Positions 1,136-7,231 of a stretch of DNA of 32,000 bases are shown here, piece by piece (the first letter of the stretch is position 1; each line of letters starts with the position of its first letter). The translations under genes and the position numbers were made by a program. Source of the DNA: Crocosphaera subtropica ATCC 51142 (GTDB lineage Bacteria > Cyanobacteriota > Cyanobacteriia > Cyanobacteriales > Microcystaceae); the NCBI RefSeq assembly GCF_000017845.1, contig NC_010546.1, positions 3,750,001-3,782,000 of the forward strand, in the 5' to 3' direction. The notes beneath the pieces are model-generated. The model was not told where the DNA came from. It saw nothing but the letters and a program-made list of their open reading frames with translations, and searched no databases.

Positions 1136-2155
1136 ATGAGCGAAACATTAAGACTATTAACTCAGCAAGATAATCAAAATTACAGTGAAACTTATCTTTC
1201 TGTCATTGTTCCCATTTATAATGAACTAGAGAGTTTACCCCTGCTAGTTCAAGCAATTGCTGATGTTTTAACAGAGAACCAATTATCTTACGAAATTATT
1301 TGTGTTGACGATGGCTCTCAGGATGGCTCTGCTGAATTATTGCAAGACCTTGCTAACAGTCGTCATGATTTAGTAGCCATTATTTTTCGTCGCAACTACG
1401 GCCAAACTCCAGCGATGGCAGCCGGATTTCAATATGCTAAAGGAAATATTATTATTACCTTAGATGGAGATTTACAAAATGATCCGGCCGATATTCCTAA
1501 GCTCGTTGCCAAACTCGAAGAAGGTTATGATTTGGTGAGTGGTTGGCGTAAAAATCGCCAAGATGCCCGTTTAACAAGACTTCTACCCTCTAAAATTGCT
1601 AATTGGATTATCGGTCGAGTCACAGGGGTTAAATTGCATGACTATGGATGTTCTTTAAAAGCCTATCGTCGGGAAGTGCTATCGGATATGAATCTTTACG
1701 GCGAACTCCATCGCTTTTTACCGGCTCTTGCCTATATCGAAGGAGCAAAAATTACTGAAATTCCTGTTCGTCATCATGCCCGACGTTATGGAAATAGTAA
1801 ATATGGTTTAGGACGGACTTTCCGAGTCTTAATGGATTTACTGACTATCTTTTTCCTGAAAAAGTTTCTGACCCGTCCTATGCACATTTTTGGACTCGGT
1901 GGCTTAATTTTATTGATAACCGGCCTGTTGATGGGCAGTTACTTAACCTTTATCAAACTGATTCTTGGATTGAGTATCGGTCATCGTCCTTTACTGATTT
2001 TAGCCGTGCTTTTAATCCTCACTGGCATACAACTCTTAATTTCTGGATTATTGGCAGAACTCATTATGAGAACTTATCACGAATCACAAAAACGCCCTAT
2101 TTATCGTATCCGTCAGATAGTTCAGTCTTCAAATTCAACGGATATCACTGGTTAA
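1136..2155 (+). CDS. GT2 polyprenyl-phosphate glycosyltransferase (GtrB/ArnC/DPM1-like) with two C-terminal TM helices
   Basis: N-terminal GT-A signature LSVIVPIYNE...ICVDDGSQDGS...LDGDLQNDP (DxD), then RHHARRYGNSKYG and two C-terminal TM helices (IFGLGGLILLITGLLMG, LLILAVLLILTGIQLLISGLL). ATG at 1136 (GTG at 1133 is also possible). Confidence 0.85.
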   Translation: MSETLRLLTQQDNQNYSETYLSVIVPIYNELESLPLLVQAIADVLTENQLSYEIICVDDGSQDGSAELLQDLANSRHDLVAIIFRRNYGQTPAMAAGFQYAKGNIIITLDGDLQNDPADIPKLVAKLEEGYDLVSGWRKNRQDARLTRLLPSKIANWIIGRVTGVKLHDYGCSLKAYRREVLSDMNLYGELHRFLPALAYIEGAKITEIPVRHHARRYGNSKYGLGRTFRVLMDLLTIFFLKKFLTRPMHIFGLGGLILLITGLLMGSYLTFIKLILGLSIGHRPLLILAVLLILTGIQLLISGLLAELIMRTYHESQKRPIYRIRQIVQSSNSTDITG

Positions 2156-2315
2156 AACAGCATTCAGCGTTCAGCAGTTCCTTAACGAAGTTCTGACTAA
2201 GCGCAAACAGGATTATAAGAATATAGCTGATAGCTTGTTAAATGATCGATCTTTATTCTGATGAGCTACTTTGTTAAGTAATATTACAATCATGCTGTCA
2301 TACTGGCATAACAGC

Positions 2316-2344
2316 TTGACAGCCCTAGAAAAACTCGTTAGAGT
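2316..2344 (+). promoter_or_regulatory. Sigma70-type promoter candidate, TTGACA-17 nt-TAGAGT, for the RHH/AAA+/DUF1257 genes
   Basis: TTGACA at 2316-2321, a 17-nt spacer, and TAGAGT at 2339-2344. This lies ~37 nt upstream of the ATG at 2381. Sequence match only. Confidence 0.45.
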
Positions 2345-2380
2345 GGTGACACATACCCGGGTAACCTCAGCTAGAGTGAT

Positions 2381-2731
2381 ATGCAAGACAAGCAAAAAGT
2401 CACACTATATCTCCCCCCTGGAATTCATCGGCAACTCAAAATTAGAGCCGCCATCGACGAAGACTCTATGTCGGCCTTAGTTGAGAGGGCAGTGGACTTT
2501 TATCTCAAATACCCAGATAAAGTAGAAGAAGTAGAAGCTGCTGCCTATGGAAAAACACACCAAGTCCATGTTTGTCCAGAATGCGAAGCCGCCATGGTCA
2601 TGCGAAACGGACAAATGGTTTCTCTAAAAAATCAGCCTAGTGTTATCACAGATGATTTTCCCCTAGATATCAGAGAAGCAGTGCCAACCAATACCGACAC
2701 TTCTGGGGAAGAAGCCTTAGTTCCCTGCTAA
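2381..2731 (+). CDS. Small ribbon-helix-helix (CopG/ParD/Arc-like) protein, first gene of the Ycf46 module
   Basis: The N-terminus KVTLYLPPGIHRQLKIRAAIDEDSMSALVERAVDFYL fits the beta-strand/helix/helix RHH pattern. The C-terminal half has one CPEC pair and an acidic tail. The stop is 38 nt before the AAA+ gene. Confidence 0.65.
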   Translation: MQDKQKVTLYLPPGIHRQLKIRAAIDEDSMSALVERAVDFYLKYPDKVEEVEAAAYGKTHQVHVCPECEAAMVMRNGQMVSLKNQPSVITDDFPLDIREAVPTNTDTSGEEALVPC

Positions 2732-2769
2732 GTTGCTTAACTGTCCAACCATCATTTTAGGTCGATGCC

Positions 2770-4278
2770 ATGAAAGAAGAGCTAAACATACTAATACAAG
2801 CTCAGTATCCTCTAATATATCTTGTTACGTCAGAAGAACAAAGAGCAGAGCAGGCGATCGCTAAGATTGCTCAACAATATAGTAAGCATCGGCGCGTCTT
2901 TTCTTGGACTGTGACCCACGGAATGGTTGAATACGGACAGCCAGGAAATGCTACTCAACATAATACAGTTCATGCTGAACCAGCGATTAGTTGGGTAATC
3001 CGTGAAAAAGAACCAGGGATTTTCATATTCAAAGATTTGCACCCCTTTATTGCTGATGCCAACGTTACTCGTTCTTTGCGGGATGCCATCATCAGCTTAC
3101 GGGGAACAGAGAAAACGATTATTCTGATCTCTCCCCTACAACAGATTCCTATAGAACTAGAAAAAGACGTTGTTGTTCTCGATTTTCCTTTTCCCGATTT
3201 AAGCGAACTCAATCAAGTTTTATCACGACAACTGGAGCAAGCTAGAAGTAACCGCATTACTACCGATGCTCGTGAAAAGCTCCTCAAAGCGACCCTAGGA
3301 TTAACCAAGGATGAAGCAGAGAAGGTTTATCGAAAAGCTTATGTTAAAGCGGGTCGTCTGACAGAGGAAGAAGTTGACATTGTTTTGTCAGAGAAGAAGC
3401 AACAGATTCGCCGAAATGGAGTTCTTGATTACATCGAAGAAGATGAAACCATTAATGCTGTTGGTGGTTTAGAAGAACTGAAGAAATGGCTCAAACAAAG
3501 GTCTGGAGCCTTTACAGAAAGAGCCAGAGAATATGGTTTACCCCAACCCAAAGGAATGTTGATTTTAGGGGTTCCAGGATGTGGAAAGTCTCTGATTGCG
3601 AAAACAACCTCTCGGTTATGGGGATTACCCTTGCTGCGGTTGGACTTAGGTAGAGTCTATGACTCGGCGGTGGGTCGTTCCGAAGCCAATCTAAGAAATG
3701 CCTTGAAAACAGCTGAATCCATTTCCCCTGCCATCCTCTTCATTGATGAATTAGATAAGGCTTTTGCTGGCAGTGCTGGCTCAGCTGATTCCGATGGAGG
3801 AACATCAAGCCGAATTTTTGGTTCCTTTTTAACCTGGATGCAAGAAAAAACCTCACCGGTATTTGTAATGGCCACAGCTAACCGTGTTGAACGGTTGCCA
3901 GGAGAGTTTTTACGCAAAGGAAGATTTGACGAAATATTCTTTGTGGACTTGCCTAGTTTAGAAGAACGTCAAGCTATTTTCAATATTCACCTTACTAAAC
4001 GTCGCTCAGATATTTCTCGCTTCGATATTGAGCAACTGTCTAAGGTATCCGATGGATTTTCTGGTGCAGAGATCGAGCAGGCTATCATTGCAGCCATGTA
4101 TGAAGCCTTTGCTCAAGATAGGGAGTTTACGCAGCTTGATATTATTGCTGCCATTAAATCGACTCTCCCCTTATCTCGCACCATGACTGAACAGGTTACT
4201 GCCCTGCGGGACTGGGCGCGACAAAGAGCGCGACCTGCTTCAGCCTCCGTCGCTGAATACCAGCGATTGGAGTTCTAA
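2770..4278 (+). CDS. ycf46: AAA+ ATPase of the Ycf46 family (N-terminal ~230-aa domain of unknown function plus one classical AAA module)
   Basis: Walker A GVPGCGKS (nt 3568-3591), Walker B ILFIDELD (from nt 3733), and sensor/Arg-finger region ATANRVERLPGEFLRKGRFDE. The 502-aa length and the N-terminus (LNILIQAQYPLIYLVTSEEQRAEQAI) match the cyanobacterial/plastid Ycf46 pattern as I remember it. Confidence 0.85.
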   Translation: MKEELNILIQAQYPLIYLVTSEEQRAEQAIAKIAQQYSKHRRVFSWTVTHGMVEYGQPGNATQHNTVHAEPAISWVIREKEPGIFIFKDLHPFIADANVTRSLRDAIISLRGTEKTIILISPLQQIPIELEKDVVVLDFPFPDLSELNQVLSRQLEQARSNRITTDAREKLLKATLGLTKDEAEKVYRKAYVKAGRLTEEEVDIVLSEKKQQIRRNGVLDYIEEDETINAVGGLEELKKWLKQRSGAFTERAREYGLPQPKGMLILGVPGCGKSLIAKTTSRLWGLPLLRLDLGRVYDSAVGRSEANLRNALKTAESISPAILFIDELDKAFAGSAGSADSDGGTSSRIFGSFLTWMQEKTSPVFVMATANRVERLPGEFLRKGRFDEIFFVDLPSLEERQAIFNIHLTKRRSDISRFDIEQLSKVSDGFSGAEIEQAIIAAMYEAFAQDREFTQLDIIAAIKSTLPLSRTMTEQVTALRDWARQRARPASASVAEYQRLEF

Positions 4279-4414
4279 CAAGCTTTCACCTGCTCCCAAC
4301 AGGTGTAAAGGCTAGTCACAAGCTAGCAGCCTATAAAACGTCGTCCCTATGAGACGGCACATTCAAACCCTAAATTGTTGTTGTTAACTTCTGTTCTACT
4401 GGAGGAAATCGAAA

Positions 4415-4768
4415 ATGTCTCACTTTAGCACTCTGCGCACCAAAATCACAGATGCTGAAATTTTAAAAGCTTCTTTACGGGATCTCGGTATTTTTGTTAA
4501 GACCGATGCTGATGTAAGAGGTTATAACGGTCAGCGCGTTCGTTCTGATATTGTTGCTGTTCTTGATGGTGAATACGATCTCGGCTGGTCTCGCAATAGC
4601 GATGGTAGCTTTGATCTAATTGCTGACCTTTGGGGTGTTGCTAAGAAGCACAACCAAACCGAATTAATCAACTCCATCAATCAAAAGTATGCTGTTAACA
4701 AGACCTTAGCAGAAGTTAAGCAGCGTAACTTAGGCAAAGCTAATATCAATTTAGTTCTTCACAGCTAA
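4415..4768 (+). CDS. DUF1257 (Ycf35-like) small protein
   Basis: The N-terminus MSHFSTLRTKITDAEILKASLRDLGI is the typical DUF1257/Ycf35 signature. GGAGGA lies 8 nt upstream of the ATG. Same strand as the AAA+ gene. Confidence 0.8.
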   Translation: MSHFSTLRTKITDAEILKASLRDLGIFVKTDADVRGYNGQRVRSDIVAVLDGEYDLGWSRNSDGSFDLIADLWGVAKKHNQTELINSINQKYAVNKTLAEVKQRNLGKANINLVLHS

Positions 4769-4793
4769 GATTTAGCGCGCGTTCCCAAGCTTG

Positions 4794-4825
4794 GGGTTAA
4801 CCAGTCCTCGGTTGACCCTTTTTTT
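4794..4825 (+). terminator. Intrinsic terminator after the DUF1257 gene
   Basis: GGGTTAACC (4794-4802) pairs with GGTTGACCC (4810-4818), giving a 9-bp stem including one G-U. The loop is 7 nt and is followed by T7 (4819-4825). It sits between convergent genes. Confidence 0.65.
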
Positions 4826-4838
4826 GGGTTTATTTTTT

Positions 4839-5984
4839 TTAAGACAACGTTTTCAAAAAAGCTAGACTACTATAGAGATGAAAAGCTCCATCCCAAGGGG
4901 TTTCCTCTCGACGTAATAGGCCAACATGAGGATGAATCAGTTTGAGTAACTCTTGAAAATCAATGGCGGATTCTCCAAAAGGCGTAAATTCTGACCAAGT
5001 TAGAATACTAGGATTTTTTTCGTTAATAAAAGCCATGATATGTTGCCAGCTTTCCTTCATGGTTGCTTGGCCATCCTGAGCTTTTTGTTTATCAGAAAAA
5101 GATATTCCTTCGAGGAAACGATACTGTTGATCACACAGACGAATGATAGTATTTTTTTTAGGAAGATGAAGATCGCACATTTTTGCATAATCTAGGGTTG
5201 CTGTGGTGCGTTTTAATTGTCCCCTCAACCCAATATCGACACATTCTTCAAAAATGGGAAGTAATCCTTCTACTCGTTGTTCGACTTCTGACCATTCAAA
5301 TGTAAAGATATCCCGTTGTCCTTTTTTGGGTTCATAGACAATAGTCACTTTGGGATCAACAGACTCAATATATAGAACACTATATACCTTTAACCTATTA
5401 ACCTTGCCAAGCAATGCAGTAAAACAGGGGATATCGGCTTGTTTCAGTTGTTCGGCTTGAAAATTGAGCTTACCAATAGCCCCAGTGCGGTACAATCGCC
5501 AAGAACGACTAGGGAGTTGTAATCTAGCAGTATAGGGATCAATTGCCATAATTTCCCCAAATTTCTGGGCTGCAGTCTTTTTTAACTCATTAGAAATAGC
5601 CTCAAGAACCAATATCCCCATTTCTTGCGATCCGCTTTCTGCCATCGCTTCATCTAAAGCGGTTTGACGTTCCTTTATTTCTTGTTGGTTAATTCGTTCA
5701 ATTCCTTGACGAATTTGTCTCATTAGCTTGGGGTTAACTGCATTAGGTAACAGTTCTCGATAACGTTCATTAGCAAAGCTTACATTTCCTTGAGCTTCAG
5801 CTAAACGAGCTTGATAAAATGGAATCCAAATATTATCGGGGTCGTCTTGCTGTAACTGTTGAAGCAGTTGAGACGCTTCCTCGTAATTCTCGCTATTAAT
5901 AGCATTAATAATTGATTCAACCATAGCAGTATCTATAGTTTGATTAGGTGTATAAATTGAAAATTCTAGAGAAGAAAAATACAA
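4839..5984 (-). CDS. Hypothetical protein with an N-terminal TPR-like helical region
   Basis: Long uninterrupted ORF (381 aa). The N-terminus NSENYEEASQLLQQLQQDDPDNIWIPFYQARLAEAQGN looks like a TPR unit; the rest has no motif I recognise. An alternative start is Met21 (nt 5924). Confidence 0.6.
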   Translation of the reverse strand: MYFSSLEFSIYTPNQTIDTAMVESIINAINSENYEEASQLLQQLQQDDPDNIWIPFYQARLAEAQGNVSFANERYRELLPNAVNPKLMRQIRQGIERINQQEIKERQTALDEAMAESGSQEMGILVLEAISNELKKTAAQKFGEIMAIDPYTARLQLPSRSWRLYRTGAIGKLNFQAEQLKQADIPCFTALLGKVNRLKVYSVLYIESVDPKVTIVYEPKKGQRDIFTFEWSEVEQRVEGLLPIFEECVDIGLRGQLKRTTATLDYAKMCDLHLPKKNTIIRLCDQQYRFLEGISFSDKQKAQDGQATMKESWQHIMAFINEKNPSILTWSEFTPFGESAIDFQELLKLIHPHVGLLRREETPWDGAFHLYSSLAFLKTLS

Positions 5985-6037: not shown

Positions 6038-7231
6038 TCAAGAATTTACATAAACTCGTCCTTTCCATCCGCCTCCTTTTCCTCGCCAGTGTCGCCATGC
6101 AGAGTCTATTGTCATTAAACCATAGAGAAGGCCAATTAGGGGCAGACTCAATCCCCACAGAGGAGAACATTGATATAACTTTAAAGTAGGAAAATAAGAA
6201 ATCGTCATTAATAACCAGGTAATTCCTCCCAAAATGGCAATTATTTGATTCTGAATAATTAATCCTATCATCAAACCAATGGGACCAACTAAATAAACTA
6301 AGGTTAATCCTAGTAAGGTTCCTATTAATAATAAAGGAGAATAATTTAACTGAGTATAGGCCGTTCTTGCCACCATATTCCAAATCGAATCTAAGTTATC
6401 ATAAGGTCGTAAACTAAGGGTTTTTTCACTTAATCCTAACCAAATACCTTGATCGGGATTTTTGCTATTTTCTTGTAATTTTCCTTTGACGGCTGCTGCT
6501 AGAGAACAATCATCAATTAACGCTTGTTTAACCACTTCTATTCCACCAATTTCTTCTAACATATCACGACGAATTAAAATACAACCGCCGGCTGCTGCTG
6601 CCATTTTATGACGGGGGTTATTTACCCAAGAAAAAGGATAAAGTTTTTCAAAGAAAAAGACAAACGCAGGGATCAAAAATTGTTCCCAAAAACTCTGACA
6701 TCTTAGTCTAACCATGAGGGAAGTCATGGCTAAATTATCTTGTTCTGCTTGATTAACCAATTCTTTTATATTGGTACTATGATGTTCAATATCAGCATCG
6801 GTTAACAGTAAATAATCGGGTAAATTTTCTCTCTTTTTTGCTTGTTCAATCCCTTGTTTCATTGCCCATAATTTTCCCGACCAACCAGCAGCTAAAGGTT
6901 GACCTGAAATGACTTGTAACTGCTCAGATTTGTGACAATTTTCTGCAATGTCTTGGGCTACTTTTCCTGTATTATCGTCGCTTTGATCGTCCACTAAAAT
7001 AATAGAAAAATGCCCTGGATATTCTTGGTTTAAGAGAGATGGCAAACTAATGGGTAACACGTCTGCTTCATTACGGGCAGGAATAACAGCACACACAGAA
7101 GGATATTGATTTAATGGATTAAGATTACTATCAATTCGTTGATTACTTAACCAAAACCCTCCTCGAAATAGTAATAAATAAACCCAAATAATTAAAGATA
7201 AACTTGCAATTATTACCAAAATATTTATCAT
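6038..7231 (-). CDS. Membrane-anchored GT2 glycosyltransferase, HpnB-like
   Basis: N-terminal TM helix, then VCAVIPARNEADVLPISLPSLLNQEYPGHFSIILVDDQSDDNTG, LLLTDADIEH (DxD) and C-terminal TM helices. This architecture matches hopene-associated HpnB-type GT2 enzymes. No other hpn genes are visible. Confidence 0.75.
   Translation of the reverse strand: MINILVIIASLSLIIWVYLLLFRGGFWLSNQRIDSNLNPLNQYPSVCAVIPARNEADVLPISLPSLLNQEYPGHFSIILVDDQSDDNTGKVAQDIAENCHKSEQLQVISGQPLAAGWSGKLWAMKQGIEQAKKRENLPDYLLLTDADIEHHSTNIKELVNQAEQDNLAMTSLMVRLRCQSFWEQFLIPAFVFFFEKLYPFSWVNNPRHKMAAAAGGCILIRRDMLEEIGGIEVVKQALIDDCSLAAAVKGKLQENSKNPDQGIWLGLSEKTLSLRPYDNLDSIWNMVARTAYTQLNYSPLLLIGTLLGLTLVYLVGPIGLMIGLIIQNQIIAILGGITWLLMTISYFPTLKLYQCSPLWGLSLPLIGLLYGLMTIDSAWRHWRGKGGGWKGRVYVNS

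Follow-up and report, generated by a model that had tools for sequence, protein, structure and literature searches.

A three-gene module near the start of a 32,000-nucleotide (nt) stretch of the Crocosphaera subtropica ATCC 51142 genome (NC_010546.1, positions 3,750,001 to 3,782,000; hereafter the window) encodes a small, probable ribbon-helix-helix (RHH) protein, the AAA+ ATPase Ycf46 and a protein of the DUF1257 (Ycf35) family. By homology this locus is the orthologue of slr0373-ycf46(slr0374)-slr0376 in Synechocystis and of Synpcc7942_0416-0418 in S. elongatus, and because these operons are published the module is already known and the Crocosphaera locus itself adds nothing new. Its interest lies in comparative leads, namely a linkage to a DUF1257 partner that reaches phages and distant phyla, candidate DNA sites for the RHH protein, an RNA element in the ycf46-DUF1257 spacer, and a p97-like Ycf46 with a pseudo-ATPase tier. 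New in this comparison are the conserved gene order in 28 loci, the promoter elements, the covariation of a twin hairpin in the spacer, the dead-tier model of Ycf46 and the linkage of DUF1257 with DUF2997. The best overall explanation, and one that we consider fairly probable, is a stress operon under RHH and RpaB control in which the Ycf46 ATPase works with DUF1257 as its partner and a structured spacer RNA stands between their genes; the single transcription unit and the three protein roles are put forward as hypotheses.

All three open reading frames that a preliminary description of this DNA had marked (116, 502 and 117 aa) were recovered at exactly the same coordinates, all on the + strand (Table 1), and the family names it had assigned were upheld by Pfam and NCBIfam profile searches. 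The 116-aa protein, 100% identical to cce_3625 (the locus runs from cce_3625 onward), matches over its full length the NCBIfam equivalog NF052617, 'slr0373 family blue light stress response protein' (168.3 bits, cutoff 100), and its Pfam match to Antitox_RHH lies below cutoff (23.6 bits, cutoff 27.2). The 502-aa protein matches AAA PF00004 (99 bits, residues 263-393) together with AAA_lid_3, and the 117-aa protein matches DUF1257 PF06868 (75.6 bits, cutoff 22.2).

Gene order is conserved across cyanobacteria

Scanning an alignment of Ycf46-family proteins against one genome per species (185,579 species genomes) yielded 29 cyanobacterial loci, in which Ycf46 is 68-84% identical over residues 1-502, and 51 non-cyanobacterial loci at 44-51% identity. 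With profile models built for this analysis, the genes for RHH, Ycf46 and DUF1257 were found in this order on one strand in 28 of 28 complete cyanobacterial loci (the 29th is cut by a contig end), and the same trio occurs amid unrelated flanking genes in Planktothrix, Leptolyngbya PCC 7375, Synechocystis spp. and Anthocerotibacter, a relative of Gloeobacterales. Conserved co-occurrence of the three families, which the preliminary description had named as a test of its proposal, was thus found in every complete cyanobacterial locus sampled. The module is present as a single syntenic copy in every sampled cyanobacterium, including Gloeobacterales, and the AAA-DUF1257 linkage is older than the Gloeobacterales split. 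Between cyanobacterial orders the DUF1257 protein stays 79-96% identical (~79% over its full length against Anthocerotibacter), and identity of the RHH protein falls to 42-48%. DUF2997 was absent from all cyanobacterial loci scanned (open reading frames of at least 35 aa) and gave no match in any open reading frame of at least 30 aa across the 32-kb window. A clearly cyanobacterial RHH-ycf46-DUF1257 locus (L030; 78% identity, twin hairpin at 29.5 bits) also turned up in a metagenome-assembled genome (MAG) labelled Sphingobacterium thalpophilum, a contig that is probably mis-binned.

The counterparts of the module have a published history of stress induction. In Synechocystis, slr0373-slr0374-slr0376 is described as a stress-responsive operon (PMC7496141, PMC7283877); inducers reported for these operons are iron, sulfur and nitrogen deficiency, salt, high light and oxidative stress, with a response to low inorganic carbon as well, and the three genes are reported as the most strongly induced under blue light (PMC7496141). 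Inactivation of slr0374, whose product is Ycf46, is reported to harm CO2 utilisation (Jiang et al. 2015, via PMC7496141 and PMC7283877). The Synechocystis counterpart and the CO2 link, both named in the preliminary description, agree with these publications (PMC7496141 and PMC7283877, citing Singh and Sherman 2002 and Jiang et al. 2015), as does its wording of a conserved module without a known mechanism with the literature searched, in which no established mechanism was found. In S. elongatus, a preprint assigns Synpcc7942_0416-0418 to an expression module of their own, 'RpaB ycf46', induced by severe oxidative stress and also by darkness, and dependent on RpaB and (p)ppGpp, and cites Ycf46 as a KaiC interactor (bioRxiv 10.1101/2025.07.21.665879). 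These expression data are for Synechocystis and S. elongatus; in the Crocosphaera copy, what points to stress-induced co-expression is the conservation of promoter, HLR1-like and terminator sequences.

A covarying twin hairpin in the ycf46-DUF1257 spacer

The spacer between ycf46 and the DUF1257 gene is structured, and its length is always 107-188 nt among the loci. Directly 3' of the ycf46 stop codon stand two hairpins, P1 and P2, followed by a conserved GCAG. RNAalifold placed 15 base pairs here, with compensatory changes in 9 of the 15; 95.6% of the cells are paired, compared with 37-65% in slid controls, and none of 500 shuffles reached the observed values. A covariance model built on this structure returned exactly one match per cyanobacterial locus in 31 of 31 loci, five held-out loci included (27.9-78.7 bits; L001, L005, L008-L035 except L031, L053 and L174), and also matches Synechocystis. 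Applied to 27 non-cyanobacterial loci it matched none, and it likewise gave no match elsewhere in the window, in Anthocerotibacter or in L170, a locus from an uncultured metagenome lineage. Among the loci covered, the twin hairpin is specific to cyanobacteria above Gloeobacterales. The arms of P2 are nearly invariant in sequence (GCTAGC, itself palindromic) and stand 4 to ~50 nt apart, with compensatory arm changes in L005, L030 and L174, and P1 covaries freely. The CACCTG...CAGGTG hairpin that the preliminary description had pointed out is present, as P1, and is part of a conserved covarying structure; the spacer as a whole is a conserved structured element, not a stretch with small hairpins only. 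No Rfam family matched at E up to 1 in region 2000-5200 on either strand. The spacer was listed in 2009 as a top RNAz candidate 'slr0374-x-slr0376' (PMC2662882), and the twin hairpin appears never to have been characterised since that listing.

Further along the spacer, most loci carry an A-run and then a GC-rich hairpin of varying sequence at the place of a third hairpin, P3; on the minus strand, P3 could end an antisense transcript spanning the DUF1257 start. The leader of the DUF1257 gene contains GTTGTTGTT, a pyrimidine tract and, ending 6 nt short of the ATG, the Shine-Dalgarno sequence GGAGGAAA, from which hardly any locus deviates. The translation signals of the two genes are unequal, GGAGGAAA for DUF1257 versus the weak AGGTCGA for ycf46; across most loci the latter takes the form (A/G)GGTCGA or GGATCGA, 4-8 nt 5' of the ycf46 ATG, and the remainder of the RHH-ycf46 spacer is unconserved, with lengths of 38-221 nt (38 nt in Crocosphaera, the shortest among correctly called loci, and 55-221 nt elsewhere). 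A hairpin sequestering the DUF1257 Shine-Dalgarno sequence was predicted in many loci, but its predicted stability is weak (-4 to -15 kcal/mol) and inconsistent, and we do not claim it.

The terminator that the preliminary description had placed after the DUF1257 gene was recovered by scan as a hairpin (4793-4819) with a T-run, and its stem sequence is conserved: the 3' untranslated region (UTR) box GCGTTCCCAA and the stem GGGTTAACC...GGTTARCCC recur in ~25 of 29 loci, across orders. The P1 loop CTCCCAA and the box GCGTTCCCAA have UCCCAA in common in many loci. The 3' UTR element may be the counterpart of the non-coding RNA ncr1200, which is reported to lie downstream of slr0376 (PMC7283877), and may thus represent a small RNA derived from the 3' UTR.

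Promoter elements and candidate operators

Upstream of the RHH gene, a consensus scan found TTGACA-17-TAGAGT with 10 of 12 matches, and with 4 promoter-like sites seen in the region versus 5.8 expected the scan alone is not above chance. We nevertheless accept the promoter that the preliminary description had proposed at 2316-2344 because of its phylogenetic footprint: TTGAC(A/G), a 17-nt spacer and TAnnnT occupy identical alignment columns in 30 of 30 cyanobacterial loci anchored on CTTGAC(A/G), and a 31st locus (L009) has ATTGACA in the same columns as the -35 of the other 30. The start codon follows 63-70 nt downstream across the anchored loci, except in a few loci with miscalled starts, and transcription is predicted to start at ~2351.

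Alignment of the upstream regions of 29 loci revealed one common architecture consisting of an HLR1-like element, four boxes, the promoter and a palindrome. The HLR1-like element has, in reverse complement, the consensus GTTACATT-tc-TTTACATT. HLR1, the site of RpaB, is quoted as (G/T)TTACA(T/A)(T/A)-N2-repeat in bioRxiv 10.1101/2021.03.26.437152; the upstream octamer pair fits this definition, with 13 of 16 positions matching in the Crocosphaera copy, and is a candidate RpaB site. The four boxes that follow read ATGCTGTC, ATACTGGC, ATAACAGC and TTGACAGC in the window, the -35 hexamer lying inside TTGACAGC, and their self-identity is 0.51 at an 8-nt shift versus 0.14-0.30 at the other shifts within 3-13. 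Just past the predicted start stands the palindrome, which is too short for an RNA hairpin; ATACCCGGGTA is identical or within ~1 base in ~23 of 30 anchored loci, and more diverged but recognisable in most others. We regard the four tandem boxes as a candidate operator of the RHH protein and the palindrome TACCCGGGTA as a second candidate operator. The autoregulatory role that the preliminary description had given to the RHH protein, itself still hypothetical, gains circumstantial support from these conserved promoter repeats.

Predicted structure and conserved residues of the three proteins

The AlphaFold2 model of Ycf46 is of high confidence (predicted local distance difference test score, pLDDT, 93.4; predicted TM-score 0.90), and Foldseek aligns it over 524-584 columns (~550) to the D1 and D2 tiers of p97/Cdc48/Rix7/AFG2 with query TM-scores of 0.60-0.69, so that the modelled fold is that of a p97/Cdc48-like, two-tier (type II) AAA+ protein. 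Because both tiers of these proteins are aligned, residues 1-220 are read as an AAA-like domain with its lid. This region has no P-loop, a conserved T-x-E-E-x-R standing at that place, and for lack of a P-loop we call it a pseudo-ATPase tier that has apparently lost nucleotide binding. Residues ~226-502 form a classical-clade AAA domain and lid, nearest in sequence to p97 D2 (E = 1e-53), in which Walker A (GVPGCGKS), Walker B (ILFIDELD), sensor-1 N371 and R382/R385 of the second region of homology are nearly invariant among 76 family members; only this second tier has intact ATPase motifs. Pore loop 1 reads A300-V301-G302 where p97 D2 has W-F-G, and across the Ycf46 family it is mostly L (33), Y (11) or I (6), then V-G. 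By analogy, Ycf46 would be a hexamer. Cyanobacterial Ycf46 proteins share the C-terminal tail ...SVAEYQR(L/M)EF (residues 492-502, 4246-4278), which varies elsewhere; it has low model confidence and could be a docking tail.

The DUF1257 protein was modelled by AlphaFold2 (pLDDT 83) with the order beta-alpha-beta4-alpha2 and a long helix at its end. Foldseek of this model against the PDB gave no match at E < 0.05, a PDB sequence search gave a best match at chance level only (E = 0.17), and two unnamed viral homologues in BFVD have the DUF1257 fold. Conservation of M1 and S2 stays at 90% or more down to members that are 15-30% identical, MSHF is invariant in the soluble type, and the MSH motif is noted in PMC13060386. 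A subgroup in Planctomycetota and Verrucomicrobiota (L036, L037, L044, L050, L058 and L065) has a hydrophobic N-terminus, MS-x-V...P-VIA-WPA, and no His3, a sequence that suggests a membrane-anchored variant.

In the RHH protein, a predicted N-terminal ribbon-helix-helix (~residues 4-45) with an invariant KQKVTLY beta-strand is followed by a C-terminal part. Among 120 homologues H63, C65-P-E-C68 and the last residue, C116, show little or no variation, which suggests a metal or redox site. A PDB profile search with the family gave marginal RHH and zinc-finger matches only (CopG-family RHH, E = 0.018; SvtR-like 2kel, E = 0.036).

Linkage of Ycf46-like ATPases and DUF1257 beyond cyanobacteria

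None of the 51 non-cyanobacterial Ycf46-like loci contains an slr0373-type RHH gene. In 19 of the 51, DUF1257 and then DUF2997 adjoin the ATPase gene, on one side of it or the other, and a Pfam check of such a pair gave 53 bits for DUF2997 and a weak 22.1 bits (cutoff 22.2) for DUF1257. Adjacency of AAA and DUF1257 genes was observed in Planctomycetota, Verrucomicrobiota, Myxococcota, Chloroflexota, archaeal MAGs and viral contigs, and in six Planctomycetota and Verrucomicrobiota loci (L036, L037, L039, L044, L052 and L058) the ATPase gene is preceded, at a distance of 0.2-1.1 kb, by a radical SAM gene. In IMG/VR, full-length Ycf46-like proteins are encoded by at least 466 contig stretches, and among the best 80 loci (L088-L167) DUF1257 and DUF2997 both occur within 5 kb in 27, as checked with Pfam. 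The full-length viral ATPases are 30-44% identical and lie on contigs that include some of 100-550 kb, often with neighbours that, from motifs read by eye, look like genes of replication and recombination (helicase, primase, SbcCD, RecA-like) and sometimes beside a radical-SAM-like gene; the viral families involved (PHROGs 8638, 20456 and 23133) are all labelled 'unknown function'. Pfam recognised neither DUF1257 nor DUF2997 beside the Ycf46-like genes of mycobacteriophage Corndog (L168, gp96) and a Streptococcus satellite phage.

Three loci from an uncultured metagenome lineage (L170-L172) have the order RHH-AAA-DUF1257-DUF2997-radical SAM, with an RHH protein 36% identical to that of the window, CPxC included, and a DUF1257 protein 60% identical. 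This arrangement bridges the cyanobacterial and non-cyanobacterial architectures. In red-algal plastids, losses of ycf35 and ycf46 are reported to tend to coincide by lineage (PMC5940233). From the distant and viral linkage, the L170-L172 arrangement, the plastid losses and the absence of an slr0373-type RHH gene from the 51 non-cyanobacterial loci, we infer that AAA-DUF1257 is the evolutionary core of the module and RHH a lineage-specific addition, in a linkage that is not obligatory. The preliminary description had cast the DUF1257 protein as an adaptor or substrate of the AAA+ protein; the linkage far outside cyanobacteria supports this pairing, and the role itself is proposed as a hypothesis.

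Among long Ycf46-like proteins (P0260, P0267, P0313, P0317, P0332, P0388, P0373 and P0249), fusions were seen to Lon protease, TerD, trypsin-like peptidase, Ser/Thr kinase or SIR2-like domains, and one protein is split by an intein that contains a LAGLIDADG domain. Such fusions are typical of conflict systems, in contrast with the housekeeping-like cyanobacterial copy.

One transcript or more

No hairpin with a T-run was found by scan on the + strand between the module genes, and because no intrinsic terminator separates them read-through is plausible. For Synechocystis, the three genes are reported to form one tricistronic operon, with evidence of the RT-PCR type for the joint message (Singh and Sherman 2002; Jiang et al. 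2015, via PMC7496141 and PMC7283877). However, slr0376 is also reported to be predominantly monocistronic with its own mapped start site (PMC7283877), and another source treats slr0373-slr0374 as a dicistronic unit (bioRxiv 10.1101/2021.03.26.437152), to which the RNA helicase CrhR is reported to bind. The one transcription unit of the preliminary description is therefore only partly supported: the terminator scan and the reported tricistronic operon speak for it, the mainly monocistronic slr0376 against it. An internal DUF1257 promoter was looked for in the locus alignments, and no conserved -35 or -10 was found in the spacer or over the final 90 nt of ycf46, where conservation follows codon positions. 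We therefore favour, as an inference from this absence, a read-through transcript that is processed, or differentially stabilised, at the twin hairpin.

Proposed working and alternative explanations

In the working that we propose, transcription would start at the conserved TTGACA-17-TAGAGT promoter, which would be wired to the redox/light regulator RpaB through the upstream HLR1 element and probably also to the operon's own RHH product with its Cys3/His module. The RHH protein would bind the four tandem boxes reaching into the -35, the palindrome at +4 to +13, or both, acting as an autoregulator that is possibly redox- or metal-sensitive. Ycf46 would assemble into a p97/Cdc48-like hexamer with a dead first tier and a second tier carrying the ATPase motifs, and DUF1257, judged from genomic linkage, would be its dedicated partner, whether as its main client or as a cofactor or adaptor that docks on the dead tier. 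RNA polymerase would read through the ycf46-DUF1257 spacer, the twin hairpin and perfect Shine-Dalgarno sequence would uncouple DUF1257 output from Ycf46 output via processing, stability or translation, and the message would end at the conserved terminator.

A more far-reaching version, which we hold only tentatively, is that Ycf46 and DUF1257 (with DUF2997 where present) make up an ancient, unrecognised two- or three-part AAA+ machine in which the new-fold DUF1257 is an obligate cofactor or client, and to which cyanobacteria added the RHH/RpaB promoter and a twin hairpin that sets the Ycf46:DUF1257 ratio. If true, such a machine would be common to cyanobacteria and red-lineage plastids and, beyond these, to many other bacteria, some archaea and large phages. 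For about three decades ycf46 and ycf35 have carried the label 'hypothetical chloroplast reading frames', and few transcription units of model cyanobacteria respond to stress with stronger induction than this operon.

Several observations weigh against the proposed working. The HLR1-like element lies at about -81 to -60, farther upstream than where such an element is said to act in classical activation or repression, and the boxes and palindrome could be sites of another factor. The predominantly monocistronic slr0376 is left unexplained when no internal promoter is conserved. Fusion to DUF1257, DUF2997 or RHH was found in none of 150 diverse Ycf46-like representatives, and ~60-65% of non-cyanobacterial and viral Ycf46-like genes have no DUF1257 nearby according to our profile models; because most distant homologues show no such neighbour, a Ycf46-like ATPase can work without DUF1257. 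Pore loop 1 of canonical unfoldases is aromatic-hydrophobic-Gly, and because that of Ycf46 lacks the aromatic residue threading is not assured.

Some of these points would also fit with co-regulated neighbours that are not physically coupled, DUF1257 being an independent stress protein with its own transcript, kept in place by shared regulatory signals. The monocistronic slr0376, the structured spacer that always separates ycf46 from DUF1257 and the lack of fusion proteins all speak for such an arrangement, as does a second cyanobacterial DUF1257 paralogue, ycf35, reported elsewhere in the genome beside DUF2997 and fed7 (PMC4284462). We consider it unlikely, as AAA-DUF1257 adjacency recurs in distant phyla, archaeal MAGs and viral contigs that lack the cyanobacterial regulatory signals and has persisted since before the Gloeobacterales split. 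The conserved spacer could also act as DNA rather than RNA, with the GCTAGC...GCTAGC repeat as an operator or as part of an internal DUF1257 promoter, an idea to which the nearly invariant palindromic arms of P2 and the internal slr0376 start reported in Synechocystis (PMC7283877) lend themselves. The variable distance between the arms, their compensatory changes and the free covariation of P1 are against it, no conserved -10 or -35 is visible there, and we judge a DNA-level role to be quite improbable.

A further alternative makes Ycf46-DUF1257 a new ATP-dependent protease, in which a DUF1257 ring would supply the near-invariant Ser2 (with His3) as nucleophile, in analogy to HslU-HslV. Its attractions are the conserved M1/S2 and MSHF, the extreme conservation of DUF1257 as a whole, a Ycf46 C-terminus (AEYQR(L/M)EF) conserved as docking tails are, and a Hess-lab preprint that loosely terms Ycf46 an 'AAA+ protease protein'; but the 117-residue DUF1257 model is unlike any N-terminal-nucleophile hydrolase or peptidase in the PDB, His3 is missing from the membrane-anchored subgroup, and many well-expressed bacterial proteins have a Ser as second residue, all of which makes a protease very unlikely. 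Less likely still is a toxin-antitoxin or anti-phage defence module with the RHH protein as antitoxin or regulator and the AAA+ protein (with DUF1257) as effector or sensor, a resemblance raised in the preliminary description. Here one can point to the weak Antitox_RHH match, to the JGI name 'plasmid stability protein' for RHH relatives, to the PADLOC IetA models that match the AAA part of Ycf46 (94.5 bits), to the distant Ycf46-like proteins fused to SIR2, trypsin-like peptidase, kinase or TerD domains, and to the abundance of the Ycf46-like family in viral contigs. The Antitox_RHH match is below cutoff, however, and the next gene encodes a 502-aa AAA+ ATPase and no small toxin; no IetS-like protease or other effector is nearby, the neighbours being a family-2 glycosyltransferase and a TPR protein. 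We rejected membership in IetAS/IteAS, as NCBIfam IteA NF042959 reaches 81.5 bits with a cutoff of 510 and the PADLOC match covers residues 250-484, the AAA domain only. Expression of the published counterparts tracks abiotic stress, and the module is single, syntenic and universal in cyanobacteria with members kept in plastids, the opposite of the patchy distribution of toxin-antitoxin and defence systems. For the Crocosphaera copy the resemblance is therefore not supported.

Feature coordinates and flanking genes

Upstream of the module, the window encodes a membrane protein without a Pfam match (59-1018) and then the family-2 glycosyltransferase (1133-2155); downstream, on the minus strand, follow the TPR protein (4839-5984) and a 397-aa open reading frame (6038-7231). 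These flanking genes are unrelated to the module, whose features are collected in Table 1.

Table 1 Features of the RHH-ycf46-DUF1257 module, in window coordinates
Feature	Position	Strand	Evidence
HLR1-like element, pair of 8-nt direct repeats (candidate RpaB site)	2270-2291	-	Alignment of 29 upstream regions
Four tandem 8-bp boxes, consensus W-T-G-(A/C)-C-G-(T/G)-C, the last containing the -35	2292-2323	+	In register in 28 loci
Predicted sigma-70-type promoter: -35 TTGACA (2316-2321), 17-nt spacer, -10 TAGAGT (2339-2344)	2316-2344	+	Consensus scan and phylogenetic footprint
Perfect 10-bp palindrome TACCCGGGTA, ~+4 to +13	2354-2363		Conserved across anchored loci
slr0373-family RHH gene (cce_3625)	2381-2731	+	NCBIfam NF052617, 168.3 bits
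Weak Shine-Dalgarno-like element AGGTCGA before the ycf46 start	2759-2765	+	Conserved in most loci
ycf46 (slr0374 orthologue), gene for a predicted two-tier AAA+ ATPase	2770-4278	+	AAA PF00004 and AAA_lid_3, AlphaFold2 model
Twin RNA hairpin P1 (4283-4310) and P2 (4311-4327), then conserved GCAG	4276-4332	+	RNAalifold, covariance model
Third hairpin P3 preceded by an A-run; hairpin and U-run on the minus strand	4342-4356		Terminator-like site on the minus strand in scan
DUF1257 leader: GTTGTTGTT, pyrimidine tract, Shine-Dalgarno GGAGGAAA (4401-4408)	4377-4408	+	Alignments of 29-31 spacers
DUF1257 gene (slr0376 orthologue, Ycf35 family), protein starts MSHF	4415-4768	+	PF06868, 75.6 bits
3' UTR: box GCGTTCCCAA (4779-4788), then intrinsic terminator (stem 4793-4819 and T-run)	4779-4829	+	Terminator scan and conservation

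Comparison with known systems

At the protein level, Ycf46 shares with p97/Cdc48/VAT, Rix7 and AFG2 the fold of both tiers, a second tier close to p97 D2 and intact classical-clade motifs, but lacks their N-terminal cofactor-binding domain and first-tier Walker A, with an overall identity of ~19%, and differs from p97 in having A-V-G in place of the aromatic-hydrophobic-Gly of pore loop 1. Its AAA domain also resembles IetA of the IetAS (IteAS) system, as seen in the PADLOC match; this match stops short of the N-terminal dead tier, there is no gene for an IetS protease, and the cyanobacterial module is vertically inherited.

The RHH protein has a predicted small N-terminal RHH like that of the MetJ, Arc, CopG and NikR repressors and, as in NikR, an extra C-terminal module; it is only marginally similar to solved RHH structures, and its Cys-Pro-x-Cys...Cys module has no characterised counterpart. 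The promoter of its own gene recalls the met-boxes of MetJ in having tandem 8-bp repeats with a GACGTC-like core.

With the Ycf46-like AAA+/DUF1257/DUF2997 cluster of other phyla and viruses, the Crocosphaera module shares a full-length ATPase (36-51% identical) encoded beside a DUF1257 gene; the cluster differs in having DUF2997 immediately after DUF1257 and, in many cases, a radical SAM gene, and in having no slr0373-type RHH except in L170. The closest known systems are slr0373-slr0374-slr0376 and Synpcc7942_0416-0418, which contain the same three families in the same order as the Crocosphaera locus with no structural difference, and the loci of Synechocystis spp. have both the same trio and the same twin hairpin.

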